IMG/VR virus record: IMGVR_UViG_3300036803_000040
Span: 1-64,000 of that record
Reading direction: 5' to 3' (one strand)
Source: a virus
Taxonomy: Duplodnaviria > Caudoviricetes
Length of the DNA stretch: 64,000 nucleotides
Every line of letters begins with the position of its first letter. The stretch's first letter is position 1. Under the pieces are notes generated by a model. The model saw nothing but the letters and a program-made list of their open reading frames with translations. It did not search any database and had not been told where the DNA came from. The translations under genes and the position numbers were made by a program. Positions 4,502 to 61,321 of the stretch are shown here, piece by piece.

Positions 4502-4516
4502 GATAACGCATTTATC
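4502..4516. promoter_or_regulatory. 15-bp box variant GATAAC-GCAT-TTATC (fully palindromic arms)
   Basis: Upstream of 3944..4471; minus strand reads TATCCT. Confidence 0.6.
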
Positions 4517-4688
4517 ACGGGTACGAGCGGCCGATCAGCCGCGCGTGACGCCGCTCCGCTCGCGCCAGCCGACGATCCAGCCGGTCAGCCTGCGCCGGCG
4601 TCATCGTCAACTCCCTGCGACGCCGCTCGGCGCGCAGCTTCTCGACCTTGAGCGCAGCCCGACAGCTTCGCCACCACCTGATCGTCAC
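4515..4688 (-). CDS. Small basic hypothetical protein
   Basis: GTG 4688 overlaps the upstream stop. Confidence 0.45.
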   Translation of the reverse strand: MTIRWWRSCRAALKVEKLRAERRRRELTMTPAQADRLDRRLARAERRHARLIGRSYP

Positions 4689-4903
4689 GGTGTCACCTCG
4701 ATGCGCGTCGCTGTCACGTTCCCGACGCACGTGCGCTCGCTCGCCGCGGCGACCTCAAAGCGCATCGTGATCGTCAACGCCTCGCCCTCGACCGGTGGCC
4801 GGCCGAGCATCCTCTCGACGAACACCAGCGGCACCGCCTGCCGCTGGACGACGAGCGACGGGATCCCATCGGTGAGCGTAGGTGCCCCATCGAGCTCGCT
4901 CAC
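4685..4903 (-). CDS. Hypothetical protein
   Basis: 72-aa ORF with overlaps at both ends. Confidence 0.55.
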   Translation of the reverse strand: MSELDGAPTLTDGIPSLVVQRQAVPLVFVERMLGRPPVEGEALTITMRFEVAAASERTCVGNVTATRIEVTP

Positions 4904-5370
4904 GGCGTCACCTCGAGCACGAACACCTCGCCGTCCTCGACGCCCTCAATCGCGGCCTTGACCAGCTTGCCGATCGCCTCCGCGTCAAGCGCCTCAGCGA
5001 TCGCCATCGTCAACCGGACCGTCGGCTCGCTGCCGCCGGCGAACGCGGTGCCCCACTGCGGAGCTTCCCGCGGCGCGGCCTGCTCGTCCTCCTCGAGCTG
5101 ATCCGGCGGATCCGGTGTGCGCACCACCACCGGCCCCGGTCCCTGCTGCGCGCCGTCGAGCTCGTCCAGCGACGGGCCCTGCCACTCACCCGGCGCCACC
5201 TCGACCGCCTTGCCGTGCTCGCGCAGCGTGTTCAGCATGCCCATCGCATCGTTATGGCCCACCTCGAACTCCTCACGGACCTGAGCGACCGTCACACGAT
5301 CGTCCGTCTCCGCAGCGACCGTCAACAGCCGCTCGAGCTCGCGGAGATCCTCACTCGCCGGCGCGGCCAT
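4900..5370 (-). CDS. Putative winged-helix DNA-binding protein
   Basis: VTVAQVREEFEVGHNDAMGMLNTLREHGKAVEVAPGEW. Confidence 0.5.
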   Translation of the reverse strand: MAAPASEDLRELERLLTVAAETDDRVTVAQVREEFEVGHNDAMGMLNTLREHGKAVEVAPGEWQGPSLDELDGAQQGPGPVVVRTPDPPDQLEEDEQAAPREAPQWGTAFAGGSEPTVRLTMAIAEALDAEAIGKLVKAAIEGVEDGEVFVLEVTP

Positions 5371-5848
5371 TGAGCACCTCCCCCACAACCTCGAGCACCG
5401 TGTCGATCAGCTCTGCAGAGTGCTCGGGTTGCAGCGAGTGCCGATCCCACAGCAGCCGCTCGGCCTCCGTGCGGACCCGCGGCTTGAGCTCGGAGAACCG
5501 CTCGACGTTGCCCGTGGCCACATAGAGCGCCTGACCATCGTGCGTCTTGCGCCCACTATCCGCGTAGCCGAGCGGCGGCTCGGGATCCGGCTCGAGCGCC
5601 CGCCACGCCGCCACGGCCTCCGACGTCGGCAGCACGAGCTGCAGCGCCGTCGGCCGATCGACCGCGGCCCCGATCTGATCGCCCACGTACACCAGTCCGC
5701 ACGCGATCGCGTTCGCGAGCTCGGCCAGCACATTCGCCAACTCCTCGCTCGTGTTCATCGCAACGACCCCCGCGGCGCCGCCATGTCTCAGCGTCGCGGC
5801 CCGCGGATTGAACGGCTCATCCGCCGGCGGCATCCGGTGCACACTCAT
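5351..5848 (-). CDS. Hypothetical protein
   Basis: 165-aa ORF in operon. Confidence 0.55.
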   Translation of the reverse strand: MSVHRMPPADEPFNPRAATLRHGGAAGVVAMNTSEELANVLAELANAIACGLVYVGDQIGAAVDRPTALQLVLPTSEAVAAWRALEPDPEPPLGYADSGRKTHDGQALYVATGNVERFSELKPRVRTEAERLLWDRHSLQPEHSAELIDTVLEVVGEVLNGRAGE

Positions 5849-6282
5849 CGGGGCACCTCGCGGATTCCGCCGGCTCCGTCATGCTCGACAGGCCGGCCCA
5901 CGCTCCGAGCCCAGCTGGCGGCATCCTCAGCATGCTCGGCCGCGGCCGCGGCGCGCTGAGCCTCGATCGCCTCCTCACGCAGCCGCTCGAGCGCCGGCAC
6001 CGGCCGCGGCTCGGCCGACCGGAGACTGCGGTCCAGATGCAGCATCACCTGCGCCGTGCCCACCGTCTCACCGTCGCGCGTCACCGACAGATACCGCCAG
6101 TGATGCTCGCTCGTCGGGGCGAGCTGCGCCGCATCGAAGCCGAGCGCCGGCACGAGCTCGCGGAGCTCCTCCTCCGTGCTCGCCTCAAAGCGCAGCTCCA
6201 AGCCGCGCGGCGTCGGCGCGCCCGGCGGAAAGTCCATCTCGATCACGAACTCCTCCGTGATCTCCACTCCGTACTTCGCCAT
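5845..6282 (-). CDS. Hypothetical protein
   Basis: AGGAGG RBS; 15-bp box upstream. Confidence 0.65.
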   Translation of the reverse strand: MAKYGVEITEEFVIEMDFPPGAPTPRGLELRFEASTEEELRELVPALGFDAAQLAPTSEHHWRYLSVTRDGETVGTAQVMLHLDRSLRSAEPRPVPALERLREEAIEAQRAAAAAEHAEDAASWARSVGRPVEHDGAGGIREVPR

Positions 6283-6315
6283 CTCGTCGCCTCCTGCTCG
6301 GGGTACGCGACGGAA

Positions 6316-6330
6316 GATAACAGACTGATC
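6316..6330. promoter_or_regulatory. 15-bp box GATAAC-AGAC-TGATC overlapping -10 TATCTT
   Basis: Exact consensus, intergenic. Confidence 0.75.
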
Positions 6331-6336
6331 AGCCGT

Positions 6337-6837
6337 TCAGTGGATCGGACACTTGATCGTCGACGGGCCCCCACACGTGCAGCCATGCGCTCGCGCGGTC
6401 GGCCCGCCTGGCGTGCGCTGAACCTCACGGTGCGGCTCAGCCTCCGGAGCGGCCGCGGCGAGACGCGCGAGCTCCTCATTGCGCTTCACCACCGACACCG
6501 ACGGCGGCGCGTCCGGACCGTTCTCGTCCAGCCACGCGAACTCGATCATCTCCATGAACGTCGCGCCTGGCCGGCACGTCTCAGCGAAATCACAATCCTG
6601 GCGGTTGCACGCGCTCATCGTCATCACCGGCTGCGTATCGCGCGGATCCAGCGAGGTGAACTTCAGGCCCATCGTGATCCGCCGGCCGCAGCCGTTGCAG
6701 CGGGCGCCGAGCTTGTGCTCGAGCATCTCCTGCACACGCCGCGCCTCCTCGTCACTGATCGTCTTCACGGTCAGATCCACGGCACGCGCGCCGCCGGCGA
6801 TCCTGCGAGCTCCGTTGCTGCCCGGCTTAGCCATCAC
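6337..6837 (-). CDS. Cys-rich putative zinc-binding protein
   Basis: CNGC...CNRQDC; C-terminal GCTCGGPSTIKCPIH. Confidence 0.6.
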   Translation of the reverse strand: MMAKPGSNGARRIAGGARAVDLTVKTISDEEARRVQEMLEHKLGARCNGCGRRITMGLKFTSLDPRDTQPVMTMSACNRQDCDFAETCRPGATFMEMIEFAWLDENGPDAPPSVSVVKRNEELARLAAAAPEAEPHREVQRTPGGPTARAHGCTCGGPSTIKCPIH

Positions 6838-6843
6838 AACCTC

Positions 6844-7185
6844 CTATGCGCCGGCGCCGACGAGCTCGCGCTCCTCGACCGGTCCGCTCGTGTCAAGTCC
6901 GGCCAGCACGTAGGCCGCGCGGCCGCGGTCATCCTCACCTGGCGGCTGCTCAGAATCCTTCACGTAGCCGATCGTCTCCACCGGCGCCTTCTCGAGCTCG
7001 GGCACCCAATACGCCACGTGCGCCACCGCGACCTTCTCGCAGTTACGCATCCCGCAGCCACCGTTGCCAGGACAGCGGCCCACCTCGATCTCATTCGGCA
7101 GCGGGTTCTCGTCGCTCATCCCGAACACGAGCCCCTTCGCCCCGTCGAACGGACCGCCGAACAGCAGCATGTCGAAGTAGATCAC
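6844..7185 (-). CDS. Hypothetical protein (GGPxDG motif, Cys-rich)
   Basis: LFGGPFDG; CPGNGGCGMRNC. Confidence 0.55.
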   Translation of the reverse strand: MIYFDMLLFGGPFDGAKGLVFGMSDENPLPNEIEVGRCPGNGGCGMRNCEKVAVAHVAYWVPELEKAPVETIGYVKDSEQPPGEDDRGRAAYVLAGLDTSGPVEERELVGAGA

Positions 7186-7550
7186 GGCGCGGACTCTATC
7201 CGTGACCGGCGCTCCTCGAAATCCATCTGCACAACCCACGCGCCGCAGCTCGCCCCGAGCGACATCACGGCCTGCCGTAGCCCGCTGAGCGCCTCGCGCT
7301 CCTCCTCGACCGCCGGCGTGACCGGCAGCCCCATGTCCTGCGCCTGCTTCTGCCGGCCTCGAGCCTGCGCCACCTGCTTGCTCACCGCGCCGACATGCTG
7401 GATCGATCGCACCAGCTCCGTCTGCGAGCCGAGCTGCTCACGCTCGATGACGAGATCATGCAGCTGATCACCGACACGCTCCCGGAGCTCGCGGACCAGC
7501 GCCGACACCTCACCATAAGGATCGTCCGTCTTCTTACGCGTCGCGCTCAC
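7182..7550 (-). CDS. Coiled-coil hypothetical protein
   Basis: Helical heptad-rich 122 aa, coupled to the terL stop. Confidence 0.55.
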   Translation of the reverse strand: MSATRKKTDDPYGEVSALVRELRERVGDQLHDLVIEREQLGSQTELVRSIQHVGAVSKQVAQARGRQKQAQDMGLPVTPAVEEEREALSGLRQAVMSLGASCGAWVVQMDFEERRSRIESAP

Positions 7551-9414: not shown

Positions 9415-9441
9415 AGTCTAGACCGCGATCAGTCAGCTATC
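9415..9441 (-). promoter_or_regulatory. Leaderless terL promoter (TAGACT, 8 nt before GTG) overlapped by a 15-bp box variant (9427-9441)
   Basis: Minus strand: cgcGATAGCtgacTGATCgcggtcTAGACTccggtgccGTG. Confidence 0.55.
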
Positions 9442-11767: not shown

Positions 11768-11902
11768 TCAGCGATCGTCGTCCTCCTCGGGCAAGCCGTC
11801 GCCCTCAGACACGCGATCGTCCAGCCGGTCGCCGGCCGTGACGTCCTCCTCACGGAGCTCGTCATCAGTCGGTTCGCGCTCCTGGCCGTCTGGAAACTCC
11901 AT
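11768..11902 (-). CDS. Highly acidic 44-aa peptide (not in track)
   Basis: MEFPDGQEREPTDDELREEDVTAGDRLDDRVSEGDGLPEEDDDR; TGATG coupling. Confidence 0.5.
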   Translation of the reverse strand: MEFPDGQEREPTDDELREEDVTAGDRLDDRVSEGDGLPEEDDDR

Positions 11903-12981
11903 CAGCCTTCGGGCGCCTCATCCGCGGACGGAGCCGCGGCCTCACCGACGCTCGCCGACGTGGCAGCGACGGTCGGCTGCGTCGACCCGGAGTAGACCTC
12001 CCAGCCGGCGACGCCTGCGCCGTTCTGCTCGCCCGGCTCGGAGTCACCCGCGAAGTAATACAGCTGCTTCGGGGGCGAGTCCTCCGTCTGGACGGGAGCG
12101 GCCGGCCACGTGGTCGGATCGATCGTTGCGGGATCGCCCGAGAACGTGTAGACCGCCCGCTCGTTCACCGAGACGCCCGTGGGCGCCGTCGCGGTCGGAT
12201 CGGTCACACCGCCGGCGGGAGCTGCGCCACCGGCGGGATCCGCCGGCGTCGAGGTGCCCGTCGGGTCAGTCGGCCCTGCACCCGGATCGGCAACCGGAGC
12301 CGCGGGATCCGCGACCGGAGCCGCGGGATCGGACACCGGAGCGCCCGTGCCGGGATCGACCACGCCGCCGGCGCTCGGATCGGTCGCCGTCGGATCGGTT
12401 GCGACACCGCCGGCGCTCGGGTCGGTGGCCACGGGAGCCGCGCCACCCGCGGACGGGTCAGTCGTGCCGCCGGCGCTCGGATCGGGAGCAGCGCCACCCG
12501 CCGGATCCACCGTGCCGGTCACACCGGCCGTCGGATCAGGCGCAGCATTGCCCTCGACCTGCGCGACCGCCGGATTGGACTTCGCGGCCGCGACCGCATC
12601 CTTGGCGCCCTGCGCCACAGCCGTGACCGATTCGGTCACCGCGGCAATGTCAGCCTCGCTGACGCCACCGCCCTGAGCGGCCTGAGTCTGCAGCTGAGTC
12701 AGCTGCCCCTCGACCGTCCCGAGATCGTTCGCCACCTGCGCGAGCTCGTCATGCTCGGCCTGCGCCGCCGTCTTCACGTCATCTACCGCTGAGCGGAGAT
12801 CGTCGATCGCCGTCATTTGCTCCTCCTGTCGAGTAATGAGCTCGATCAGCAGATCGCGCTTGCTCCAACGCCGCATCTCCTCGATCGTCGCCCGCTTTGG
12901 ATCTTGCACGTTGGACACGATACCTCCGTGATCAGACGCCGCCGCGTGAGCTCCGCCATGAAACCCCGCAGAGAGCGCCAT
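11902..12981 (-). CDS. Coiled-coil plus Asp-Pro repeat protein with small C-terminal domain
   Basis: Helical N-terminus, DPSAGG/DPAAPVA repeats, C-terminal YTFSGDP...LYYFAGD...WEVYSG. Confidence 0.7.
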   Translation of the reverse strand: MALSAGFHGGAHAAASDHGGIVSNVQDPKRATIEEMRRWSKRDLLIELITRQEEQMTAIDDLRSAVDDVKTAAQAEHDELAQVANDLGTVEGQLTQLQTQAAQGGGVSEADIAAVTESVTAVAQGAKDAVAAAKSNPAVAQVEGNAAPDPTAGVTGTVDPAGGAAPDPSAGGTTDPSAGGAAPVATDPSAGGVATDPTATDPSAGGVVDPGTGAPVSDPAAPVADPAAPVADPGAGPTDPTGTSTPADPAGGAAPAGGVTDPTATAPTGVSVNERAVYTFSGDPATIDPTTWPAAPVQTEDSPPKQLYYFAGDSEPGEQNGAGVAGWEVYSGSTQPTVAATSASVGEAAAPSADEAPEG

Positions 12982-14468: not shown

Positions 14469-14803
14469 CGGACCGACACGGCCACGTTCGCCGGCGCCGA
14501 GCCAGCCACCGCGATCGTCGCCCGGACCACCGCCGACTTACGGCCCGTCGCGCCATGCCGCCACCGCCACCACCGAGACGCCCGCAGCGTGATCTCAACC
14601 CGCCGCTGAAACGGATCCTCACGCGCCGACACCGACACGCCCGGCTGCACCACCCGCCTCGCATCCGCCGCCAGCCGCGACGCCAACGGATCCACCTGAG
14701 CCTTGATCGTCACGGGTCGGCACGATAGCTCAGTGATCGGACGCACTAGATGCCAGCGCACCTGCTGCGCGAGCCCCTCGATGATCGGCCAGTTATCAGC
14801 CAT
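14456..14803 (-). CDS. Hypothetical protein
   Basis: ATG 14803 (MADNWPII) overlaps the upstream stop. Confidence 0.5.
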   Translation of the reverse strand: MADNWPIIEGLAQQVRWHLVRPITELSCRPVTIKAQVDPLASRLAADARRVVQPGVSVSAREDPFQRRVEITLRASRWWRWRHGATGRKSAVVRATIAVAGSAPANVAVSVRWLS

Positions 14804-15301: not shown

Positions 15302-15384
15302 TGCCAGAACCGGTGTTGATAGTGGCCGGCCAGCATCCCGAGCACGAACGCCAGCACCACCGCGGCGATCCAGATCGCGGTCAC
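15298..15384 (-). CDS. 28-aa membrane peptide (not in track)
   Basis: MTAIWIAAVVLAFVLGMLAGHYQHRFWQ; GTGA overlaps at both ends. Confidence 0.5.
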   Translation of the reverse strand: MTAIWIAAVVLAFVLGMLAGHYQHRFWQ

Positions 15385-16007
15385 GCCGCCTCGCTTCCCT
15401 CGCCGAGCTCGCGCACCGAACCCGCCGGCGCCTCCCAATCAGCCCACAACGGCGTCTTGTACTCCACCAGCGCATCGAACAGCTCGAGCGCCTCGATCGC
15501 CGACATCTCCCCGTTCGCGACCTTCGCGAGCGCCTCCGCCATACGCCGGCCGGTCTGCAGCATCTCCGACTCAGCGCGGAACAGCTCGAGGTTGTCCGGC
15601 AGCTTGCCGACATCCGCCAGCAGCGCCGTGTACCGCTCAAGCGCGTCCGCCCCACCCTTCATCGCCGCGATCGCGACCGCCGGCGCGCGCTCCCTGCAAT
15701 CCAGCGCCATCGCCGCGAAGCTCTCCATCTGCTGCTCATAGGTGCGCAGCACCCGCTCGATGATCTCCATCGGCCGTCGCTCGAGCGCTGTCGGGCGCAG
15801 CTGAAACGACGCCTTGAGCCGCTCCACGCTGCGCGTCGTCAGCCCGTATTTCTTGGCGACGTCCTTCTGCTCGTCGCCGGCGTGCAATGCCGCGATGATC
15901 GCCGCGTTACGCAACGCGAGCTCGGCCGCGTTGAGCGGCTTGCGCCCACGCTTCGCCGGCGGTTTCTTCTCCCCAGCCTCGCCCGACGTTTCTTTGTCCT
16001 CAGCCAC
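15381..16007 (-). CDS. HTH protein; candidate terminase small subunit or Mor-like activator
   Basis: RNAAIIAALHAGDEQKDVAKKYGLTTRSVERL followed by a helical domain. Confidence 0.6.
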   Translation of the reverse strand: MAEDKETSGEAGEKKPPAKRGRKPLNAAELALRNAAIIAALHAGDEQKDVAKKYGLTTRSVERLKASFQLRPTALERRPMEIIERVLRTYEQQMESFAAMALDCRERAPAVAIAAMKGGADALERYTALLADVGKLPDNLELFRAESEMLQTGRRMAEALAKVANGEMSAIEALELFDALVEYKTPLWADWEAPAGSVRELGEGSEAA

Positions 16008-17915: not shown

Positions 17916-18192
17916 CGCTGGCCTCCTGCTTCGCGTCGGTCTTCTCGCGCCACTCCTGCTTATCCGGGCACGTCGCCCAATGATTCAGCCGCAACGGCGC
18001 GCCCTGCGCCCGCGCGTGCTCAAGGGTCTTATCCGACAACGTGACAGCGAGCAACGCGCCACCCATCCGCGCCGGCTGCAGCAGCAGGATGTTGCCATTA
18101 CTGACCGGCTCACAGTCGATCGGCGCCTTTGACCCTTGCGGCGTCATCGCCCAATGCACCCCCGCCTTGCACGACCTGCACTGATCAGCCAC
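17896..18192 (-). CDS. Small Zn-binding phage protein
   Basis: CRSCKAGVHWAMTPQGSKAPID...NHWATCP. Confidence 0.65.
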   Translation of the reverse strand: MADQCRSCKAGVHWAMTPQGSKAPIDCEPVSNGNILLLQPARMGGALLAVTLSDKTLEHARAQGAPLRLNHWATCPDKQEWREKTDAKQEASGAAASD

Positions 18193-18508
18193 GAGCTCGC
18201 CTCTTCGCATCCAGCCACCGCTGAGCCCGACCACCGCTCCAATCCGGCGCGCCAGCGCCGGCGTGCGCATCATCCCACTCAGCCTGCGCCTCCTCCTGCG
18301 CTCGCGCCTGGCCGACCGTGCGCGTCTCAGTCCTGCGCACGTGGCGCAGCTGTACGCCCGTCAGCATCCCCACCGCGAGCAGCGCCAGCAGCACCGCGGC
18401 AAGCCACGAGCCCGTGCCGATCGCGCCGACGAGCAGGAAGCCCGTCAAGACGAACAGCCACGGATGCCAGCCACGCCGGCCACCGAACGAACGCCAGAAA
18501 AAGATCAT
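18185..18508 (-). CDS. Membrane protein (probable leaderless start)
   Basis: Two TM segments; TATCAT 7 nt before the ATG. Confidence 0.55.
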   Translation of the reverse strand: MIFFWRSFGGRRGWHPWLFVLTGFLLVGAIGTGSWLAAVLLALLAVGMLTGVQLRHVRRTETRTVGQARAQEEAQAEWDDAHAGAGAPDWSGGRAQRWLDAKRRARG

Positions 18509-19320
18509 GCGGCCGATGATAACGGAATGATCGGCCACTCTCGAGGGACGACGCGATCGGGTTGCGGCGGCACGTCCTTCCACGGCGCGCCGGCGTGAAA
18601 GAACTCCTCGAGCTCGATCGCCTGCACCCGCGCGGCCTTGCGCTGCCACTCATGCAGCGCGTCGAGATCCCCACGGACCCGCTCCCACTCCTGCGTCAGC
18701 TCGATGTACTCGCGGCGCTCATCCTCACCACGGCACCGGCGCACCACGCGGCCGCGCTTGCCCAGCACCCACGCCAGCCGCGCGGCGGCGAGCGCGTCGA
18801 ACGTCGCATCATGCGCCGTCGGCAGCTCCGCCCCGTAGTGCTCACACGTCGCGATCAGCTTCCGTGAGCCCTTGCGGTACTTCTGCAAGTCCCGGTCGAT
18901 CACCATCGGGTCGATCACCCGCAGCCTCGTCAGGATCTCAGCGATCGCCGGCGAGCCCAGCCGGCGCAGCTCGCGGTCAGCGACCGTCAAGTCATAGCGC
19001 GCGTTGAAGACCACCAGCGGCATGCCACGGTTCAGCATCCGCTCGAACGCCACGACCAGCTGCGCGATCGCCTCAGCGAGCTCGACGCCCTGCTGCCGGG
19101 CGCGCTCGTTCGTGATCCCGTGCACGTCGATCGCCTCCTGCGGGATCTCCACGTGCGGATTGACCAGCCACGCGTGCTCCTCAACAGTGCGCTTCTCGCC
19201 CTGCTCGAGCCGGCTCGGGCCGATCGCCACCAGCGCCGCGGACACGATCCGCGCCTCCTCCGGATCCGATGCCGTCGTCTCGAGATCGAACGCGGCCAGC
19301 GGGCCATCCCACCAGCTCAC
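18505..19320 (-). CDS. DEDDh 3'-5' exonuclease (DnaQ-like)
   Basis: FDLETT, HGIT, FNARYD, AHDATFDA. Confidence 0.9.
   Translation of the reverse strand: MSWWDGPLAAFDLETTASDPEEARIVSAALVAIGPSRLEQGEKRTVEEHAWLVNPHVEIPQEAIDVHGITNERARQQGVELAEAIAQLVVAFERMLNRGMPLVVFNARYDLTVADRELRRLGSPAIAEILTRLRVIDPMVIDRDLQKYRKGSRKLIATCEHYGAELPTAHDATFDALAAARLAWVLGKRGRVVRRCRGEDERREYIELTQEWERVRGDLDALHEWQRKAARVQAIELEEFFHAGAPWKDVPPQPDRVVPREWPIIPLSSAA
18518..18532. promoter_or_regulatory. 15-bp box GATAAC-GGAA-TGATC overlapping -10 TATCAT
   Basis: Exact consensus inside the exonuclease 3' end. Confidence 0.7.
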
Positions 19321-21640: not shown

Positions 21641-21837
21641 TCCTCGTCGAGATCAGAGCCGAGCACGTCCACCTGCGCCAGCCGCGTGCCATGCGTCAGC
21701 ACCACCAGCGCCGACGCGCCCAGAATCGCATCCGGGAGCGCCAACGGCAGCGCGTCCGGCGTCACCAGCAGATAGACGCCCAGCCCGATCGCCACGATCA
21801 ACGCCACCGCGGCGAGCACCTTCTCGAGCACGATCAC
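21637..21837 (-). CDS. Small two-TM membrane protein
   Basis: Hydrophobic 66 aa. Confidence 0.6.
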   Translation of the reverse strand: MIVLEKVLAAVALIVAIGLGVYLLVTPDALPLALPDAILGASALVVLTHGTRLAQVDVLGSDLDEE

Positions 21838-22856
21838 GACGACACCGCGGCGAGACTCGCCTCGAGGCTGGCCATCAGGCTCTCAGCCTCCGTGGCCGGC
21901 GCCGGCATGATGATCTGCGCCACCTCGCCGGCCTCCGCCTTCACGCGCAGCTCCTCGCGCAACGCGATCGCGTCATCGCGCAGGTCGTCGACCACCGACG
22001 GCGGCGCGCTCATCGCCTCGATCAGCTGAGAGAACATCGCCACCTCCTGCTCGGTGACCTGTTCCTTCTGGATCCGGGTCGCACGCGCCGGCGGCTCGCG
22101 GAAATCCTCGCTCCACACGAGCTCGAGCAGCACCAGCACCCCGCCGGCGTTACCGATCACACCGAGCGTCTGCCGCGACTTTTTCGTCAGCTTGACCACC
22201 GCCATCCGCCGCGTCGCCTTCAACGCCTCGAAGATGATCCGCAGCGCCCGCGGCGCCTTCTCATCCGCCGCGCCGACGTAGTAGGCGCCCTTCACACGGA
22301 CGCGCGGCACGTGCGTGCCATCGATGAAATACAGCACCTCCATGCGCTCGAGCTTCGTCGTGTCGTCGATCACCTCGAGCTGCGTCGTGCAGTCGATAAA
22401 CCGGCCGTCCTCGAGCCGGACGCCCTTGCGCACATTCTGCGGGAGCACCACCAGACCGGAGCCCTCCTCGACGAGCTCGCGGCCGTACTGACCGTCGACT
22501 TGCTGCAGCGGCGCGTGAGTCTTGTCGAACAGCGGGGAGCTCTCGGGATCCCGATCACCGAGCGCCGCGCGCACGCGCTCCTCGAACGTCTCCTCCGGGC
22601 CGGGATCCTCCGGGCCGGGATCGTCGGCAAGCGGGTCGCTGGCCACCGGCACGTCCGGGACATCCACGGCCGTCTCCTCGACCGGCACCGGCCGCGCGAT
22701 CGCCCGCGCCTTCAACACGCCGCCGTTCGGGCCGGCCGTGTCGAACTGCGCCAGCTTCGACGGTGACGCGACCGTCGAGAACAGACCGACGGGAACCTCA
22801 ACAGCGCCGATCTTCAGCGTCGTGAGGCTCGAAGCCTTCTTTGTTGCACTAGCCAT
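21834..22856 (-). CDS. ku: Ku DNA end-binding protein with acidic insertion
   Basis: LKIGAVEVPVGLFST, VRKGVRLEDGRFI, YYVGA, ALKATRRMAVVKL, LVLLELVWSEDFR, EQEVAMFSQLIEAM. Confidence 0.82.
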   Translation of the reverse strand: MASATKKASSLTTLKIGAVEVPVGLFSTVASPSKLAQFDTAGPNGGVLKARAIARPVPVEETAVDVPDVPVASDPLADDPGPEDPGPEETFEERVRAALGDRDPESSPLFDKTHAPLQQVDGQYGRELVEEGSGLVVLPQNVRKGVRLEDGRFIDCTTQLEVIDDTTKLERMEVLYFIDGTHVPRVRVKGAYYVGAADEKAPRALRIIFEALKATRRMAVVKLTKKSRQTLGVIGNAGGVLVLLELVWSEDFREPPARATRIQKEQVTEQEVAMFSQLIEAMSAPPSVVDDLRDDAIALREELRVKAEAGEVAQIIMPAPATEAESLMASLEASLAAVSS

Positions 22857-22897
22857 CTCGCCCTCCTCGTGAGCGTTCTCGGGGTAACGCGTACAAA

Positions 22898-22912
22898 GAT
22901 AACAGAGTGATC
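22898..22912. promoter_or_regulatory. 15-bp box GATAAC-AGAG-TGATC overlapping extended -10 TGtTATCTT of ku
   Basis: Exact consensus, intergenic. Confidence 0.75.
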
Positions 22913-23002: not shown

Positions 23003-23278
23003 CTACGGTCGCAGCGCGGCGCGGACGATGCAGTCTTTGCTCTCGAGCAGCTTGCGCAGCCCAGCTGTGAGCTCGGGCCCGTCAAGCGACGATGCGGCCA
23101 GCGTGTGCGCGAGATCCCCGAACGGCTTGCTGATCGCAGCGAGCTCGGGTGGAAGATGCGCGTGATCGAAATACTGCAGCACGTGCGCCACCGACGGGTG
23201 CGCCGCCGCGCGGATCTCCTCATAGGTGAGCGTGCCCTGCTCAATCATGTGCGCCGGCAGCCCGGAGTCCTCAGCCAC
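23003..23278 (-). CDS. Conserved small phage helical-hairpin protein (possible Acb2/Tad1-like)
   Basis: YFDHAHLPPELAAISKPF...GPELTAGLRKLLESKDCIVRAAL. Confidence 0.7.
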   Translation of the reverse strand: MAEDSGLPAHMIEQGTLTYEEIRAAAHPSVAHVLQYFDHAHLPPELAAISKPFGDLAHTLAASSLDGPELTAGLRKLLESKDCIVRAALRP

Positions 23279-23660
23279 GCGCGCCGGCCTTCGGGATCGG
23301 CTTGACGTGCCCGCGCGACTGCTTGCTCGAACGGATGTTCGTCACGTCCGGGCCCGGCTGCCGGCGAGCTCTGGCCGCGGTTGGCCGCGGCGCCGGCGCC
23401 GGCGTCTCGTGCCCGTTGCGCGCCTCACGCGCCGCGTTGAGCTCGACCGCCAACGCCTCGACCTCGCTGCGGAAATACACGTCCGCTGAGCCGGCGACCG
23501 GGATGCGCGTCAGCCGCGGCACCGCGTCGCGCTTGAAATTCGGCGGCTTTATGTCCAGCAGCTTCGACGCTGCGGTGACGCCCACGAGCGTCTCGCGCTT
23601 CAGCTGCTCAGCCAGCTCGCTCGAGGAGAGGTTCGGGATCTTGGTCTTCCGTGCCGTCAT
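23271..23660 (-). CDS. HTH DNA-binding protein (excisionase/MerR-like)
   Basis: LVGVTAASKLLDIKPPNFKR...VYFRSEVEAL; leaderless geometry. Confidence 0.6.
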   Translation of the reverse strand: MTARKTKIPNLSSSELAEQLKRETLVGVTAASKLLDIKPPNFKRDAVPRLTRIPVAGSADVYFRSEVEALAVELNAAREARNGHETPAPAPRPTAARARRQPGPDVTNIRSSKQSRGHVKPIPKAGARG

Positions 23661-24267
23661 TTCCGGGGATGATAACAAGCTGATCGGGTGCTGTCACTGC
23701 GTCGAGCTCGCCGGGAACATCCGAGAACCGTGCCGGCAGGCCGTACACGTCGACGCGAGCGCCGGGCCCGCGCCCGAACTTGCGTGACCACCACAGCTCG
23801 CAGACGCGCCGGTCATCCACCCACAGCAGCCCGTTGAGCGCATCCTCGAGCGCCCTGGCCAGCTTCGTCCCGTCCGGCAGATCGGACTGATGCGGCAGCC
23901 GGTCAGCGTTCGGCTTCAGCGTGTCCGCGTTGCGGCCCGTCCCGTAGCGTTTCTTCGGGCTCTCGCCGTAGAAGATGACCCGCACCGCGATCGGCCCGTC
24001 GACGAGCTCGTGCGCGACGTCGAGCGCCTGCGCGCACGCCGAGCGGATCTCCTCCCGCCATGCGGTGCCGGCCTTGCCGCTGCTGTCCACCACGTTGACG
24101 ATCGGGATCCCGCTGTCTCTCGTGTACGGGATGAACCGCCGCTGGCCACCCTCAGCCGTCCACCGGCCCAGCGGGATCGCGTCCTTCGATCCGGCGCCCT
24201 TCGGGTCGCCGGCGACCTCGAAGCTGACGAGCGGCTGCGCGTGCTCCGGTGGCCACGTCTCGCTCAC
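23608..24267 (-). CDS. rusA: RusA-like Holliday junction resolvase
   Basis: GDPKGAGSK...PDGTKLARALEDALNGLLWVDDRRV. Confidence 0.85.
   Translation of the reverse strand: MSETWPPEHAQPLVSFEVAGDPKGAGSKDAIPLGRWTAEGGQRRFIPYTRDSGIPIVNVVDSSGKAGTAWREEIRSACAQALDVAHELVDGPIAVRVIFYGESPKKRYGTGRNADTLKPNADRLPHQSDLPDGTKLARALEDALNGLLWVDDRRVCELWWSRKFGRGPGARVDVYGLPARFSDVPGELDAVTAPDQLVIIPGNDGTEDQDPEPLLERAG
23671..23685. promoter_or_regulatory. 15-bp box GATAAC-AAGC-TGATC overlapping -10 TATCAT
   Basis: Exact consensus; ATG 23660 is 8 nt after the -10. Confidence 0.7.
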
Positions 24268-24770
24268 GCCGCCGCCTCGAGCTCGGCCAGTGCCTTGACG
24301 AGCTCGGGATCCGGCTGCGCGAACGGCATCGTCTCACGCCGGCGAGCCTCCGCGGCGATCGCCGCCTCGAGCTCGTCATCGAACAGGCCCACCCACTTCT
24401 CGGCCACGATCACCCGCCACCGGCCGCGGCTCTTCTGCCACGCCACACCCCGGAAGCGTGAGCGGGCGCCGCGATGCGAGCCGACGTTCTGCGCGTTGCC
24501 GTGCCGGTCGGTGATTCGGAGGTTCTCCCGGCGACAGTCCAGCTTGATCCGGTTCTCGTGATCGATCTCGCGGCGATCGCCGTACTCAAGCCCCATCACC
24601 GCCCGGTGCAGCAGCACGTTACGCCGCGGCAGGCCGGGCGCCTGACGGTACGCGTAGCCCTGCGAGTGAAGCGACCACCGCAGCGAGCCGAGCTCCTCGA
24701 ACACGTCATCGTCGACGAGCGCGTAGTCGCGGACGCTTCCGTCGCGAGCTCGCAGCGGGATCTGCTTCAC
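24264..24770 (-). CDS. HNH endonuclease with AP2 domain
   Basis: LLHRAVMG...IDHENRIKLDCRRENLR...N; SRFRGVAWQKSRGRW. Confidence 0.85.
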   Translation of the reverse strand: MKQIPLRARDGSVRDYALVDDDVFEELGSLRWSLHSQGYAYRQAPGLPRRNVLLHRAVMGLEYGDRREIDHENRIKLDCRRENLRITDRHGNAQNVGSHRGARSRFRGVAWQKSRGRWRVIVAEKWVGLFDDELEAAIAAEARRRETMPFAQPDPELVKALAELEAAA

Positions 24771-25738
24771 GACGCCGCCTCGAGCATCGCCCGCGCCGCC
24801 TCGTCCTGCGATTCGCTTCTCGCCGGCAGGGACGGCCGGCGCCACGGCGAAGACTGATCCGCCGGCCGCGGCGCATCTTGGGAGGATTCACCGCCGCGGC
24901 CGGCACGCAGAACCGTAACGTCCAGCCCGGCGATCGCGGGAAACTCCGCCGGCACCCGCGGCGTGAACATCTCCTCGCGCAAGTAGGCATTCCACGCCAC
25001 GATCGTCAGCACCGCCTTGACTCGCGCGTGCTGACTGTGACCCGCGGCGAGCTCGGAGCGCCACAGCGTCGCCAGCTGCGCCGGCGCGTCGACGCCCTCG
25101 CCTCTGGCCAGCTGGCGCATGAACGCGTCCGCCTCCGCGAGATCCACGACCGAGAACAGGTAGTGCAGGCCGGCCATCAGGCTCCGGGTGATCAGCACCG
25201 GCTGCGGCACCGACCCGACGCGCTTAGCGCTCAGCCTGGCCGCGAGCTTGCAGCTGTCTCGCAGGCCGGGATGGCGATCGAGCGTCCGGAGGATCTGTCC
25301 GATCGTCGGTGGCGCCAGGCCGGCCGTGAACGTCCGCTGATCGCGCTCATAGATGCAGACGATCCGCGCAGCCGCGGCGAGATTGTTCTGATCGGGCTCG
25401 CCGCGGAGCTTGAGCACATCCCCGATCGAGCGCGAGCGGCCCTGATCCATCGTCTCCTGCGACCGCGGATCCAAGCCGGTGATCAGCACCGTCCGCATTG
25501 GCGTGTCCGCCTCGATGATCGCCAGCAGCCGATGCTGCCCGTCAAGGATCTGACCGTTGAGATCGATCTTGATCGCCTCACCGTTGACCTGCCAGTCCCC
25601 ATTGAGGAGATCCACCGCGTACTGAGCGATCCTGCCTCGCACCCGCCCGCGGTTGTGTTTGTTGCGCTCGAGCAGCTTCACCGCCGCCGCCGGCGTGATC
25701 GTCGCGACCCTAGCCTGTAGCTGCGTGCCCGTCGGCAT
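24767..25738 (-). CDS. ParB/Srx-like DGQHR-motif protein
   Basis: ITPAAAVKLLERN.HNR...YAVDLLNGDW...LDGQHRLLAI. Confidence 0.65.
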   Translation of the reverse strand: MPTGTQLQARVATITPAAAVKLLERNKHNRGRVRGRIAQYAVDLLNGDWQVNGEAIKIDLNGQILDGQHRLLAIIEADTPMRTVLITGLDPRSQETMDQGRSRSIGDVLKLRGEPDQNNLAAAARIVCIYERDQRTFTAGLAPPTIGQILRTLDRHPGLRDSCKLAARLSAKRVGSVPQPVLITRSLMAGLHYLFSVVDLAEADAFMRQLARGEGVDAPAQLATLWRSELAAGHSQHARVKAVLTIVAWNAYLREEMFTPRVPAEFPAIAGLDVTVLRAGRGGESSQDAPRPADQSSPWRRPSLPARSESQDEAARAMLEAAS

Positions 25739-25901
25739 AGGGCGCCCCCCGACGGCCGCTCGAGAACGACCAGCTGTAGGTCCGGCAGTCACAGCCCGGA
25801 AACGTGCACTCACCGTATTTCTTGTGCCAGCCGCGAGCGTGGCCGCAGTGACACGGCTCCTGCGTCCGGGCCTGCTTGGCGAGCTTGTCGACAGCCGCCA
25901 T
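25710..25901 (-). CDS. Small Cys/His zinc-binding protein
   Basis: CHCGHARGWH...CTFPGCDC; TGATG coupling. Confidence 0.55.
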   Translation of the reverse strand: MAAVDKLAKQARTQEPCHCGHARGWHKKYGECTFPGCDCRTYSWSFSSGRRGAPYADGHAATG

Positions 25902-26788
25902 CAGAACGGGATCGTTGTCTGAGCTCGCCGGTCCGGGCCCTGCAGCAAGAACGGGACGACGAGCCCGCGCATCCGCGACGCGGCGCGATCGCCGAACACC
26001 TCCGCCCACACGTCCGGCGCGTGATTGGTCGCGATCAGCAGCGGCAGCCCCCGGTTCATCCGGTGATCGACCAGCGCGAACAGGCGATCGCGGCGCCAGT
26101 CCGTCATCCGGCCGGCGCCGAGATCATCCAGCGCGAGCACCGGCACCTCGAGCACCCGCTGCCACCGCACCTCATACGCGTCGGTGTCCATGCCGGCCTG
26201 CAGCTCATCGAACAGCTGCGAGCTCGAGCGATACAGCGCGTCGATCTTGTGGCGCTTGATCAGCACCTCGATCAGCATCGAGAGCAGATGCGTCTTGCCG
26301 CGGCCAGGCGGACCGTGCAGCGCCGGCGTCGGGATCGACGCGACGAGATCAGCCGCGTTGAAGTCGCGCAGCCATGCCCGGCACGGCTTCACGGCCTCCT
26401 GCTGCGACGTGTCCTGCGTGTCGAACCGCTCGCCGCGGAACTTGTCCGGGATCCCGCACCGCTGCAGCTGACGCTCGAGCGCCGCGGCCGGGTCGACGCG
26501 CTTGAGCGGAATCCCCGCCTCCCACCCGCACGAGTCGCAGCGAAGCAGCCACACCGGCCCGTCGCGATCGACGATGCACAGCTGGCCCTCGCAGTCGGTC
26601 GGACGCAGATACCGCGGCCGGCCGTCCGCGTCGCGCTCCCGGTCGAAATCGAAGTGCCGCATGTACGGCTCGGGCGCCGGCTCGGGCGCCGCGGGCTCGA
26701 ATCCGCGCTCCTGCAGACGAGCCTTCAGCCGGGCGAACGCGTCGCCCTGCTCGTGGCCAGACACGCCCGTTTCCGCGGTAGCGCTCAT
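25901..26788 (-). CDS. DnaC/IstB-like AAA+ helicase loader
   Basis: GPPGRGKTH, LALDDLG, LVDHRMNRGLPLLIATN; N-terminal Zn ribbon. Confidence 0.88.
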   Translation of the reverse strand: MSATAETGVSGHEQGDAFARLKARLQERGFEPAAPEPAPEPYMRHFDFDRERDADGRPRYLRPTDCEGQLCIVDRDGPVWLLRCDSCGWEAGIPLKRVDPAAALERQLQRCGIPDKFRGERFDTQDTSQQEAVKPCRAWLRDFNAADLVASIPTPALHGPPGRGKTHLLSMLIEVLIKRHKIDALYRSSSQLFDELQAGMDTDAYEVRWQRVLEVPVLALDDLGAGRMTDWRRDRLFALVDHRMNRGLPLLIATNHAPDVWAEVFGDRAASRMRGLVVPFLLQGPDRRAQTTIPF

Positions 26789-26798
26789 GCCGCCGGAA

Positions 26799-26813
26799 GA
26801 TAAGCGGGCTATC
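26799..26813. promoter_or_regulatory. 15-bp box variant GATAAG-CGGG-CTATC overlapping -10 TATCTT
   Basis: ATG 26788 is 8 nt after the -10. Confidence 0.6.
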
Positions 26814-31896: not shown

Positions 31897-31926
31897 CGAT
31901 CCTCCTAGCTCGGGGTATCCGGCGAT

Positions 31927-31941
31927 GATAACCGACTGATC
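31927..31941. promoter_or_regulatory. 15-bp box GATAAC-CGAC-TGATC overlapping -10 TATCAT
   Basis: Exact consensus at the head of the recombination/replication operon. Confidence 0.75.
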
Positions 31942-31950
31942 AGATACGAA

Positions 31951-31984
31951 AGCGGGCCCGGCCACCCTAGGAACCGGACCCGCT
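31951..31984 (-). terminator. Terminator ending the late/lysis operon
   Basis: agcggg.ccgg / ccgg.cccgct stem followed by tttcgtat on the minus strand. Confidence 0.6.
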
Positions 31985-32044
31985 CTCAAGCACCGCGCAC
32001 CCCGAGCACGCGAACGCCACTACAGAATACGGCCCAACCGGCAG

Positions 32045-58642: not shown

Positions 58643-58643
58643 G

Positions 58644-60155
58644 TCAGCCCTCCACCTTTCCGCCGAATGCTTCCACGGCCTTGTCCTCGGACTCGGCGAG
58701 CCCCATGTTCACGAACCGCTGACGCCAGTACGGCTGCGCCTTGCGGCGAGTGCTGGCGGTGCGGGTACGGTCCTCGCCGGCGTCGGAGCGCTTGGCGCCC
58801 TCGCCCTTGACCCGCGGCTTGCCGGTCGCCTCCGCGATCAGGTCACGGACGTGATCGAGATCAGCCTCGACGCGCGCCTCGAGCACCTGCTGAGCGGTGA
58901 GCTCCTTGCCGTCCGCGTCGCGCTGCTCGCTCTCGGCGATCTGCAGCGAAGCGGGAGGCCCTTCGGGAAGCATGGAGTAGCGCGCCTGCAGATCGACCTT
59001 CCACTTCGGCGGGATGCCGACGGCCGACTCGATCAGCCGGTGCGCGATGGTGCTGAGCTCGCGCTGCTCATCGCGCTCGGCGATGGTGCGCTCGGTCTGC
59101 TCGCGCAGCCGCTGCTCAAACTCTTCGACGGTCGGCATGTCGGAGCTGGACTCCTGCATGATCCGACGGACGTCAGCCTCAGTGAGCCCTTCCTTCATGT
59201 CGTCCGCATCTCCGTCGTCGTCGTTCTTCTTGGCGCCGCGCTTCCGCTTGACCTCTTCGCCGGCGCTGCCGGCGCCGCTGTCGCTCGACTCAGCAAGCGC
59301 GGGCAGCAGATGCGGAGCGTGCTCCTGCATCCACTCGCGGAGCTCGTCAGGCTTTGTGGGAAGCGCGATATCACTCATGTGCGGCGAAGCGTAAAGCGAC
59401 TCCGCGAGCGATACCACTAGCCGCACGTCGTCGCTGCTCCACTCGCCCACTTCGGGCCACGCGCCCTCTTCCTCGAGGCCCTCCGCGATCAGCAGTTTCC
59501 CGCCCGCGCCGCCACGCACCACGTAGTCGACCGAGCCCTGCGGCTGCCGGCGGATCCCCTCGATGATCATGCCCTTCTGGCCGGCGCGCCACGGCACCGG
59601 GCCCGGCTTGCCCGACGTCGGCCACGCGTTGATCGACGTGTGCAACAGGTTCGGGTTCTCGCCCACCGTCTTACGGACCAGCGGCGTCGCCCAAACCTCA
59701 GCGATCACGCCGCCCTTCTGATAGCCGTAGTTGGCGTCATCCTCCTGCACGAAATCGCGATCCCAGCCGCCCTTGAGCACTTGGCCACCGAGCTCGCGGA
59801 CGCTGCGGCCGTACTTCGCGAGCGTCTTGGCGAGCTCGGGCGGAGCGTGATCGAGAAACATCGGCCAGCCGTTGAAGACGCCGGCGTTGCTCTCGAGCAT
59901 CCGCGGCGTGTAGACCGGCGACAGACCACGCACCCGCCGGCCGCGGCTCATGCACGGCCGGATCGTGACCATCTTGCCGACGCCCTGATCGTCGAACACT
60001 TTGCCGAGCTTGGGCCGGCCTGCCGCCACGGCGATCGGAGCTCGGCGCTCCTGCACCCATGTCGGCGTCCAGACCTGCGCCTCGACGCACGGCCCGAACG
60101 TGAGGATCTCCTCGGCGCTCAGCGCCTCCTGCAGCTCGTCGTCCTCGTCGGCCAC
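58644..60155 (-). CDS. Prohead protease/scaffold fusion
   Basis: MFLDH...RSVRELGG...TSINA...SVDYVVRGGAGG; acidic helical C-terminal half. Confidence 0.8.
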   Translation of the reverse strand: MADEDDELQEALSAEEILTFGPCVEAQVWTPTWVQERRAPIAVAAGRPKLGKVFDDQGVGKMVTIRPCMSRGRRVRGLSPVYTPRMLESNAGVFNGWPMFLDHAPPELAKTLAKYGRSVRELGGQVLKGGWDRDFVQEDDANYGYQKGGVIAEVWATPLVRKTVGENPNLLHTSINAWPTSGKPGPVPWRAGQKGMIIEGIRRQPQGSVDYVVRGGAGGKLLIAEGLEEEGAWPEVGEWSSDDVRLVVSLAESLYASPHMSDIALPTKPDELREWMQEHAPHLLPALAESSDSGAGSAGEEVKRKRGAKKNDDDGDADDMKEGLTEADVRRIMQESSSDMPTVEEFEQRLREQTERTIAERDEQRELSTIAHRLIESAVGIPPKWKVDLQARYSMLPEGPPASLQIAESEQRDADGKELTAQQVLEARVEADLDHVRDLIAEATGKPRVKGEGAKRSDAGEDRTRTASTRRKAQPYWRQRFVNMGLAESEDKAVEAFGGKVEG

Positions 60156-60159
60156 GGGA

Positions 60160-60576
60160 TCAGTAGTAGGGGAGCTTGCGGTCGGTGCCGTTGATCCGCA
60201 CCGTCACGTAGCCCGCCGGCGTCGCCGGCAGAGCCGAGCCGCCACCCGCGGCCGGCGCCGCGGTCTGAGACGCGCCCGTGAGCGCCGTCTCCGCTTGGCT
60301 CGGCGTCTGATTGACGTCCTGCAGCAGCCCGCGGACGGTGTTCTCCGACACGCCGAGCAGGTTCGCCACCTCTGACACCGGATGCCCGGCATAGGCCAGG
60401 TCGACGGCCCGCTGATTGAGCGTGCCCGGCGCGGTCAACCCGGCCGCGACATTGGAGAGGTTCTGCAGCGCGCCCCGGATTGTGTTCTCGGACACGCCCA
60501 TCAGGTTTGCGATCTCGGAGATCCCGTGCCCGCCGTGCGCCAGATCCACGATCCGCTGAGTTTGTGTAGTCGCCAT
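60160..60576 (-). CDS. Tandem HTH protein with virion-like C-terminus
   Basis: ISEIANLMGVSENTIR / VSEVANLLGVSENTVR; PAGYVTVRINGTDRKLPYY. Confidence 0.7.
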   Translation of the reverse strand: MATTQTQRIVDLAHGGHGISEIANLMGVSENTIRGALQNLSNVAAGLTAPGTLNQRAVDLAYAGHPVSEVANLLGVSENTVRGLLQDVNQTPSQAETALTGASQTAAPAAGGGSALPATPAGYVTVRINGTDRKLPYY

Positions 60577-60577
60577 G

Positions 60578-60613
60578 CGCCACAGCCTAAGCCCGGTCGC
60601 CGGCGCATACCCC
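60578..60613 (-). promoter_or_regulatory. Late-class leaderless promoter GGGGTAT-N16-TTAGGCTGTGGCG-c-ATG
   Basis: Head of the capsid operon; identical blocks to 35443. Confidence 0.72.
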
Positions 60614-60620
60614 TAGAACG

Positions 60621-60685
60621 AACGACGGCGCCCCCGTGAGGGAGCGCCGCCGTTGGCTGAAACCCGGTAGGAAAGAAATCCTACC
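60621..60685 (-). terminator. Two hairpins after the Rpf-like gene
   Basis: aacgacggcgc/gcgccgccgtt (60621-60654) and ggtagga/tcctacc (60666-60685). Confidence 0.6.
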
Positions 60686-60688
60686 CCG

Positions 60689-61246
60689 TCAGCAGCCGTC
60701 GTATGGCGCCCACGGCTGAGCGCCGCGATCGGCGTACATCCGCGAGAACGCCTGCTTCTGCTCGGCCAGGCTGCCCTGACCGCCGGGCCCTTGGATCCCG
60801 TAGATGTTCGACGAGCCGGCACCGTTGGTCGACTCGCGCATGGCGACACACTGCGCGAACGAGCTCGGCACTCCCGGCACGCTGCCATAGCCGCCGGCGC
60901 TCGAGCTCGGCGTGTAACTCGCCGACGACGCGGCCGGCGCGGAATATGACGAGCTCGGCGTTGGCGTTGAGATCGCCGCCGGCGCTACTACGGGCGCCGG
61001 CGGTGGCGCGAGCATCCGCTCGAGCACATGCGTCGACGCGACCACCTGTGCATCCGTGGCCGGGCCCTTCGCGGTGCCATCCTTGACGATGTTGCGGCCC
61101 GGAGCCTGCGCCCCGAGCTTCGCTACCACGTGCCGGCGCACGTAGGAATACACGCCACGGTGGCGTGCTGTCGGCGCCTTAGCCTGCGCCGCTGCCGGAA
61201 ACACGACGGCCAGCAGAGCGGCCATCATCATCAGTCGTCGTTTCAT
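60689..61246 (-). CDS. Secreted resuscitation-promoting-factor-like transglycosylase
   Basis: Signal peptide MKRRLMMMAALLAVVFPAAAQA; Ser/Ala/Pro linker; CVAMREST...YGI...AEQKQAFSRMYADRGAQPW...C. Confidence 0.72.
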   Translation of the reverse strand: MKRRLMMMAALLAVVFPAAAQAKAPTARHRGVYSYVRRHVVAKLGAQAPGRNIVKDGTAKGPATDAQVVASTHVLERMLAPPPAPVVAPAAISTPTPSSSYSAPAASSASYTPSSSAGGYGSVPGVPSSFAQCVAMRESTNGAGSSNIYGIQGPGGQGSLAEQKQAFSRMYADRGAQPWAPYDGC

Positions 61247-61306
61247 CGGTAGACCTCCTGAAACGCGTAGAGCCGACGCTGCGATAACTCAGCGCCGGCA
61301 ATTTGC

Positions 61307-61321
61307 GATCAGGAAGTTATC
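61307..61321. promoter_or_regulatory. 15-bp box (reverse) GATCA-GGAA-GTTATC upstream of the Rpf-like gene
   Basis: Exact consensus; extra half site GATAAC at 61283. Confidence 0.65.

Follow-up and report, generated by a model that had tools for sequence, protein, structure and literature searches.

A 15-bp quasi-palindromic box, GATAACNNNNTGATC, recurs at gene starts within the first 64,000 bases (the window) of the 75,614-bp IMG/VR virus record IMGVR_UViG_3300036803_000040, a genome of about 69% GC from an uncultivated soil phage whose host is likewise uncultivated and whose phage group is unstudied. The phage under study is called G000 here, and related genomes and loci are given G and L numbers. 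The box would be the core of a promoter family that serves the non-structural genes of the clade. Judged from its sequence, the right half (TGnTATCnT) is an extended −10 promoter element, and we consider it very probable that the boxes are promoters. That they also carry an operator, so that an extended −10 promoter is combined with a phage-encoded dimeric repressor, is in our estimate slightly more probable than all other explanations together. The motif, its spacing, positions, conservation and symmetry were observed directly and are described first.

All six exact copies reported in the initial annotation of this DNA, which had been made from the letters alone, were found: five on the plus strand (6316, 18518, 22898, 23671 and 31927) and one on the minus strand (61307). 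They are far above chance, as 100 dinucleotide-preserving shuffles gave an expectation of 0.00, and 12 matches were obtained with one mismatch allowed against 0.38 expected. Because the genes of G000 lie almost all on the minus strand, as seen from GC at the third codon position (GC3) and codon-position GC in general, the five copies are read in gene sense as GATCA-N4-GTTATC(A/T)T, with the −10 hexamer built in, as had been proposed; 61307 is the sole reversed copy among the exact matches. The box family amounts to 15 sense-strand copies in the 75.6-kb genome, and 11 of the 13 sense-strand GTTATC hexamers of the whole record have GAT(A/C)A four bases upstream. An ATG follows TATCnT at 18518 (after 7 nt), 23671 (8) and 26799 (8), in agreement with the three copies annotated 7-8 nt before an ATG, and a GTG follows at the same distance at two sites beyond the earlier list, 14724 and 12919. 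At the remaining G000 boxes the start codon is 28-62 nt away and, except at 65411, is preceded by a Shine-Dalgarno (SD) sequence. The sites of the window and the elements attached to them are the following.

31924..31941, minus strand: recT box, GATCAG-TCG-GTTATC-ATC, hexamer TATCAT; ATG with SD 28 nt after the hexamer; first predicted promoter after the tail/lysis module.
31948..31987, minus strand: terminator-like hairpin ending just upstream of the recT box (−35.4 kcal/mol, z = −2.6).
31909..31917, minus strand: recT leader element TACCCCGAG, between the box and the SD.
26796..26813, minus strand: loader variant box, GATAGC-CCG-CTTATC-TTC; ATG 8 nt past TATCTT; predicted leaderless promoter of the IstB/DnaC-like gene 25901-26788.
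23668..23685, minus strand: box of the BldC-like gene; ATG 8 nt past TATCAT; predicted leaderless promoter.
23271..23660, minus strand: BldC-like gene, 129 aa, small winged-helix DNA-binding protein resembling BldC, Xis and GlnR.
22895..22912, minus strand: ku box, preceding ku (21834-22856); followed by TACCCCGAG at 22878-22886 and an SD.
18515..18532, minus strand: 18518 box; ATG 7 nt past TATCAT; predicted leaderless promoter of gene 18185-18508, which encodes a predicted membrane protein of 107 aa; the box overlaps the stop codon of an RNase_T-like exonuclease gene.
14721..14738, minus strand: 14724 variant box, right arm GCTATC; GTG 8 nt past the hexamer; candidate leaderless promoter; position weight matrix (PWM) score 22.0.
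12916..12933, minus strand: 12919 variant box, right arm GGTATC; GTG 7 nt past the hexamer; candidate leaderless promoter of a 335-aa open reading frame (ORF; 11902-12909); PWM score 18.7.
6313..6330, minus strand: 6316 box, heading the operon 5845-6282 / 5351-5848 / 4900-5370; followed by TACCCCGAG at 6297-6305 and an SD.
4499..4516, minus strand: 4502 box, left arm GATAA like the copies outside the window, 5-bp perfect arms; 28 nt before the GTG of 3944-4471, SD present.
61307..61321, plus strand: reversed exact copy between the capsid gene and a secreted moron; own-strand hexamer TATCAG, lacking the final T.
9427..9441, plus strand: reversed copy with one mismatch, a short way upstream of the terminase gene; own-strand hexamer TATCGC, lacking the final T.

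A scan of the whole record added five identical 18-mers beyond the window, likewise not on the earlier list (64870-64887, 65411-65428, 67715-67732, 68650-68667 and 70491-70508, numbered by the 15-mers on the plus strand). They share the left arm GATAA and the same spacer, and each has a gene start 33-62 nt downstream, with a recognisable SD at four of the five (65411 has none). Such identity down to the spacer suggests either recent duplication or a strict requirement. Each of them heads a small gene cassette in the head module. The variants of the initial annotation fared unevenly: 4502 and 26799 are real, 34245 (reversed and overlapping a stop/start junction) is probably due to chance, 7586 (within the terminase gene at its 3' end, with the hexamer TATCTA) is doubtful, and 14783 (inside a coding start) and 9427 are weak; the last could have arisen by chance.

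To describe the promoter half, 43 non-redundant sites were aligned on the box. The −10 hexamer TANNNT has T−12 in 42 of these sites, A−11 in all 43 and T−7 in 42, the extended −10 positions are G−14 in 40 sites and T−15 in 25, and the information content of the −35 zone is about 0 across the alignment. The sites therefore show what defines an extended −10 promoter of the sigma-70/sigma-A type, a TANNNT hexamer with TG at −15/−14 and no −35 element. T−12, A−11 and T−7 are kept even where the arms change, as in G2 (TACCAT, TACGAT). A generic sigma-70 scan of 17-33 kb returned two hits only, both of them box sites with TATCAT as the −10. When 319 kb of 11 related sequences were scanned with a PWM, 48 sense and six antisense matches were obtained versus 0.8 in shuffles, four of the six being the other strand of perfect palindromes. 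A gene start lies directly downstream of 41 of the 48 sense sites, 17 of them in leaderless geometry (ATG or GTG 6-10 nt past the hexamer, opening a long ORF of high GC3) and 24 led by an SD, with the start within 15-75 nt; in about a third of the sites the start codon is 7-9 nt downstream of the box. Orthologues in 5-7 phages retain the leaderless layout, both at the small gene and at the loader gene. In four phages (G000, L029, L031 and L036) a strong hairpin ends just before the recT box, with z from −3.5 to −4.6 in the three relatives, and the order terminator, box, leader, SD, ATG recurs at recT in several phages; such a hairpin directly before the box implies that the box would open a new transcription unit after the lysis module. 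An early or middle timing may be assigned to these promoters from gene content only.

The relatives that made these comparisons possible had to be collected by several routes. Megablast found no close cultured relatives of G000, the best match of its terminase among GenBank phages was 25% identical, and its Ku had a single weak match in cultured phages. The exact box 18-mer gave five single matches across IMG/VR, consistent with chance level, and Ku as a lone-protein seed retrieved no relatives there. Two IMG/VR genomes (G001 and G002) were obtained via the terminase, eight metagenomic loci (L027 and L029-L036) via RecT homologues, and more via a nuclease alignment, including G004 and G005, both complete genomes with terminal repeats. 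Gene order is kept across the related loci: baseplate, lysis, recT, nuclease, HTH_36, loader, RusA, small gene, ku.

At matching gene positions, the box was found in at least ten related uncultivated phages. It precedes recT in seven relatives (L027, L029, L031, L033, L034, L035 and L036) and ku in six (L027, L029, L031, L032, L033 and G2), the leaderless layout before the loader gene is present in four (L029, L032, L033 and L036), and the pair of box and BldC-like gene occurs in 10 of the 10 phages examined. Positional conservation, on the absence of which the initial annotation would have been given up, is thus seen at the recT, ku, loader and small-gene boxes. In the complete genome G004 the pattern GAT-N6-GnTATCnT occurs 12 times forward and twice in reverse, versus 0 for a reversed-pattern control. 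Moreover, GAT is kept at its fixed spacing at orthologous promoters, despite the RecT proteins being only 45-55% identical.

To examine the left half without circularity, sites were picked on the right arm alone (G.TATC.T), which gave 44 sense sites and one antisense site. In 34 of the 44, at least four of six positions match GATAAC exactly 3 nt upstream, and none of the 44 has such a match at any other spacing from 0 to 8 nt. The consensus of the left arm is G-A-T-(A/C)-A-n, a mirror image of the right one, and perfect 6-3-6 palindromes are present in G1, L031, L032, G2 and G004. Where the arms change, they change together: GATAGC/GCTATC in L032 and L035, GATAG/CTATC at all three sites of G005, and GGTAAC/GTTACC in G2, in which the hexamer becomes TACCAT. 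These symmetric changes in both arms, in three lineages, point to a dimeric binding protein. T−10 and C−9 are invariant in the G000 lineage, even though a TANNNT hexamer leaves these two positions free. At 61307 the reversed copy has its two arms intact and lacks the final T of the −10; as read from its letters it is not promoter-competent, and it is possibly an operator-only site. Together with this box (61307-61321), a second GTTATC at 61283-61288 makes up a GATAAC...GTTATC pair whose arms are separated by 27 nt; the pair lies just upstream of 60689-61246, the gene of the secreted moron.

From these observations we infer where transcription starts, what binds the box and in which direction it regulates. 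The right half would be read, most likely, by host RNA polymerase carrying the primary (sigma-A-type) sigma factor, without a −35 element, and transcription would start 6-8 nt downstream of the hexamer, yielding leaderless mRNAs or short leaders that begin near a conserved ACCC(C)GAG element beside the ribosome-binding site. The left half (G-A-T-A/C-A, roughly at −23 to −19), always 3 nt from the right arm, would complete an imperfect 6-3-6 dyad, GATAAC-N3-GTTATC, to which a phage-encoded dimeric DNA-binding protein would bind, covering the −10. Since the dyad is centred near −16, where a bound protein would occlude the −10, repression is the likelier sign, and binding would lower all box promoters together, as feedback or as an early-to-late switch. 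The initial annotation had left the choice between an operator network and a promoter class; the promoter is well supported by the extended −10, the conserved leaderless geometry, the layout from terminator to ATG at recT and the 41 of 48 sites at gene starts, and the operator is indicated indirectly, by the dyad and the symmetric changes.

The best candidate reader of the box would be the BldC/Xis-like protein 23271-23660, itself predicted to be expressed from a box promoter. An alignment (A1) of this protein with its orthologues in L027, L029, L031, L032, L033 and L036 was used as a profile against the PDB and matched Streptomyces BldC (6AMA) over the full length with E = 0.008. In the AlphaFold2 model the core has a predicted local distance difference test score (pLDDT) of 86-92, followed by an extra C-terminal helix and a basic tail; the top Foldseek matches were BldC (6ama/6amk; target-normalised TM-score 0.71-0.75, root-mean-square deviation about 2 Å), and the next ones GlnR, the Xis of mycobacteriophage Pukovnik, and RacA. 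The core is 27% identical to BldC, and the protein is, like members of the BldC family, a small winged helix of the MerR-like type that has neither a coiled coil nor an effector domain. The family was also detected in G004 (7e-20) and G005 (9e-7). In all ten phages a gene of this type stands directly behind a box, the pattern expected of an autoregulated regulator. TnrA and GlnR, which are minimal relatives of BldC, bind palindromes as dimers (PMC5859096). That the BldC-like protein is the reader is, in our estimate, less probable than not. Among the other candidates of the initial annotation, 15381 occurs in some relatives, and 4900 and 27833 gained no support. The protein 60160-60576 (minus strand, 138 aa) consists of two near-identical tandem helix-turn-helix (HTH) repeats and is encoded behind a predicted leaderless promoter of a second class, described below; it was rejected as a universal reader, being absent from three box-carrying relatives (G002, G004 and G005).

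Several observations weigh against the promoter-operator reading. In several lineages the symmetry of the left arm is incomplete (for example GATACG or GATCAG versus GTTATC), and the symmetric changes, counted per lineage, are three rather than many independent events. Operator-only sites are few (61307 and perhaps 9427). The sequence match to BldC is marginal, the family member in G002 is weak (E = 0.005) albeit syntenic, and BldC itself binds 9-bp direct repeats, AATTXXXX(C), head-to-tail (PMC5859096), whereas the box is an inverted repeat. Finally, the left arm and spacer of G2 are more conserved than its hexamer, which fits a positive promoter-specificity element equally well.

Such an element, in which a phage factor (an activator, a sigma-like protein or a sigma appropriator) would recognise the left arm, recruit or redirect RNA polymerase and take the place of the missing −35, is the strongest of the competing explanations, though we regard it as rather unlikely. 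It would account for the unconserved −35, for the fixed distance of the left arm from the −10, for the lineage-specific interior of that arm and its spacer, and for G2, where GGGTAAC-GCT-GT is invariant over about 10 sites and the hexamer varies as TAnnnT; a second promoter class in the same genome also makes a multi-class programme plausible. A possible lead is the conserved protein 15381-16007 (minus strand, 208 aa), with an N-terminal HTH and a helical body, which is present in G004 and weakly in G002, and whose ESM-Atlas neighbours are annotated as 'putative ECF (extracytoplasmic function) sigma factor' (0.93) or as HTH/terminase-small-like. However, the N-terminal position of its HTH is unlike that of ECF sigma factors, a sigma-like role is a lead only, and Pfam revealed no sigma factor in the genes scanned. 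Positions −23 to −19 are too near the −10 for sigma region 4, recognition by RNA polymerase leaves the dyad symmetry and the symmetric arm changes unexplained, and the TG of the extended −10 already permits initiation independent of a −35.

The boxes might also be plain strong extended −10 promoters of the host type without a dedicated regulator, the likeness of the left arm being due to descent, duplication or DNA shape. Extended −10 promoters lacking a −35 are common in Actinobacteria, and the five out-of-window copies, identical including the spacer, suggest duplication. Counts of 8-mers of the same composition vary widely, and the right arm alone is unexceptional among them; since the raw abundance of G.TATC.T did not stand out from these controls, it was not used as evidence. 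This explanation is nevertheless improbable, because the GAT spacing is kept at orthologous promoters of phages whose RecT proteins are 45-55% identical, the arm changes are symmetric, T−10 and C−9 are invariant, and a reversed copy exists without a competent −10.

Least of all do we expect a host transcription factor or a non-transcriptional role (a hijacked host site, a roadblock, or a replication, packaging or recombination site), a very improbable reading even though the dyad is compatible with many host regulators and the reversed intergenic copies at 61307 and 9427 are unlike promoters: in contrast to iterons or roadblocks, 41 of the 48 sites stand before genes and share one orientation, the arm variants differ by lineage in a way that speaks for a phage factor evolving along with them, a 4.5-Mb Solirubrobacterales metagenome-assembled genome (MAG), unpublished and only weakly linked to the host, contains 0 boxes, and there is no match to the actinobacterial LexA box or to the sigma-54 −24/−12 elements. 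Several known sites were rejected. A MerR-type activator operator would be centred in a 19-20-bp spacer between a −35 and a −10, while here no −35 is conserved and the dyad, with its centre at about −16, overlaps the hexamer; the G000 lineage has GA and TA where sigma-54 promoters need GG (−24) and GC (−12), and only GGGTAAC...TTAC of G2 resembles that layout; resemblances to LexA, Fur and DnaA boxes were ruled out by sequence or spacing.

Besides the box itself, a short conserved leader element follows many of the copies. In G000, TACCCCGAG has three sense copies and 0 antisense, all located behind boxes (6316, 22898 and 31927) and followed by an SD. An ACCC(C)GA element behind boxes is also found in G1, G2 (about 14 copies), G004, G005, L031, L035 and L048. 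ACCC(C)GAG/T extends to distant relatives, with many sites in G2 (L023-L026), L038, L047 and L048, and follows other −10-like hexamers as well, so that it stands behind more than one promoter class. The element lies 6-16 nt after the hexamer, mostly 1-5 (range 1-9) nt before the SD; in the mRNA it would thus be located at the 5' end or close to it. In the 4.5-Mb MAG of the candidate host lineage it is only mildly enriched (9 versus 2 in the control). A wider version of the regulatory reading, in which the BldC-like protein, translated leaderless from its own box, is the master regulator of the clade, binding a dyad fused to the extended −10 at every non-structural promoter, and ACCC(C)GAG at the 5' end of the leaders is a separate, new RNA-level signal for translation or stability, appears doubtful to us. 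If true, it would be a two-layer expression code undescribed for any phage.

Genes of the structural region are preceded by another promoter-like class, GGTATC, 16-17 nt, TA(G/C)G(C/A)T, with an ATG 6-8 nt later (leaderless).

60611, 59415, 48389, 35476 and 13017 in the window and 73387 outside it, minus strand: second-class promoter sites, distinct from the box class.

This fits a programme in which the box class would serve the non-structural genes.

Pfam and fold searches confirmed the recT, DnaC-like loader, HTH and ku genes annotated downstream: 31927 leads to RecT and then a PD-(D/E)XK nuclease, 26799 to the IstB/DnaC-like loader, 23671 to the small DNA-binding protein, and 22898 to Ku. 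The 18518 box precedes the 107-aa predicted membrane protein, and 6316 and 4502 precede unannotated operons beside the terminase. Pfam and PHROGs were run on about 45 proteins; most of the small genes had no family in either, and among the proteins scanned there was neither a sigma factor nor an integrase nor a classical repressor. Between the phrog_5931 gene and RusA, 24264-24845 (minus strand) encodes an HNH endonuclease with an AP2-like DNA-binding domain, probably a homing-type insertion; relatives have HNH genes elsewhere within the same module. In the 75.6-kb record GATC occurs 1003 times versus about 216 estimated from base composition, an excess that may be codon-driven. As to the host, the PD-(D/E)XK nuclease of the clade was compared with 185,579 species genomes and had one match (45% identity), on L037 (JBOGYZ010000057.1), a contig of 4.9 kb that had been binned in the Solirubrobacterales MAG searched for boxes above; this single contig is a weak hint that the hosts of the clade are Thermoleophilia.

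The box provides a usable promoter/operator grammar for a soil-phage clade without a cultured member (terminase at most 25% identical to those of GenBank phages). With it, sequence alone is enough to annotate transcription units, leaderless genes and moron cassettes, and a small protein and its 15-bp site are singled out as a candidate regulator-operator pair. As dispersed operator/promoter motifs of phages are already well known, what is gained is better annotation and one more example rather than a new principle. A keyword search of the literature for such a motif in actinophages returned nothing relevant, and a search with the motif letters returned primer noise only.

Among known systems, the conserved inverted repeats of phiC31 and the C1 operators of P1 are dispersed operators of phage repressors that overlap early promoters. 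The box resembles them in having many dyad copies at the starts of non-structural operons, probably for one phage regulator; it differs in its unrelated sequence, in a right arm that is itself the extended −10, and in the lack of an integrase or classical repressor among the genes scanned. The middle and late promoters of Thermus phage P23-45 have an extended −10, no −35 and no dyad, and are favoured after phage proteins modify the host RNA polymerase. With these the box shares a phage promoter class of the extended −10 type without a −35; homologues of gp39 and gp76 were neither sought nor found. The proposed similarity to mycobacteriophage stoperators did not hold in the essential points. 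Those of Cluster A (L5 gp71) are asymmetric, bound by a monomer and mostly off promoters, and block elongation (PMC6550527, PMC9283540), whereas the boxes are dyads on promoters, 41 of 48 at gene starts. What the two have in common is tens of 13-15-bp sites, lineage-specific consensus variants and nearly one orientation (here 48 sense versus 6 antisense). The box approaches BldC sites in its two AT-rich tetrads, which are set in GC-rich DNA at a distance of 9 bp, the repeat period of BldC, but these tetrads are inverted and closer to the palindromes of TnrA and GlnR. In Cluster K phages, extended start-associated sequences (ESAS) are inverted repeats of 17 bp whose spacer varies from 4 to 13 bp and in which no −10 is evident, and start-associated sequences (SAS) are 13-bp elements that contain the SD 3-7 bp from the start codon (PMC3203893). 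As there, an inverted repeat is followed by a short element near the start codon or SD, only in non-structural regions and in one orientation, and the repeat consensus is subcluster-specific; unlike ESAS and SAS, the box has a fixed 6-3-6 form that includes the −10, ACCC(C)GAG lies upstream of the SD, and the sequences are unrelated. By analogy, the box may work like the dispersed operator/promoter networks of temperate actinophages, in a layout that recalls the ESAS and SAS of Cluster K.

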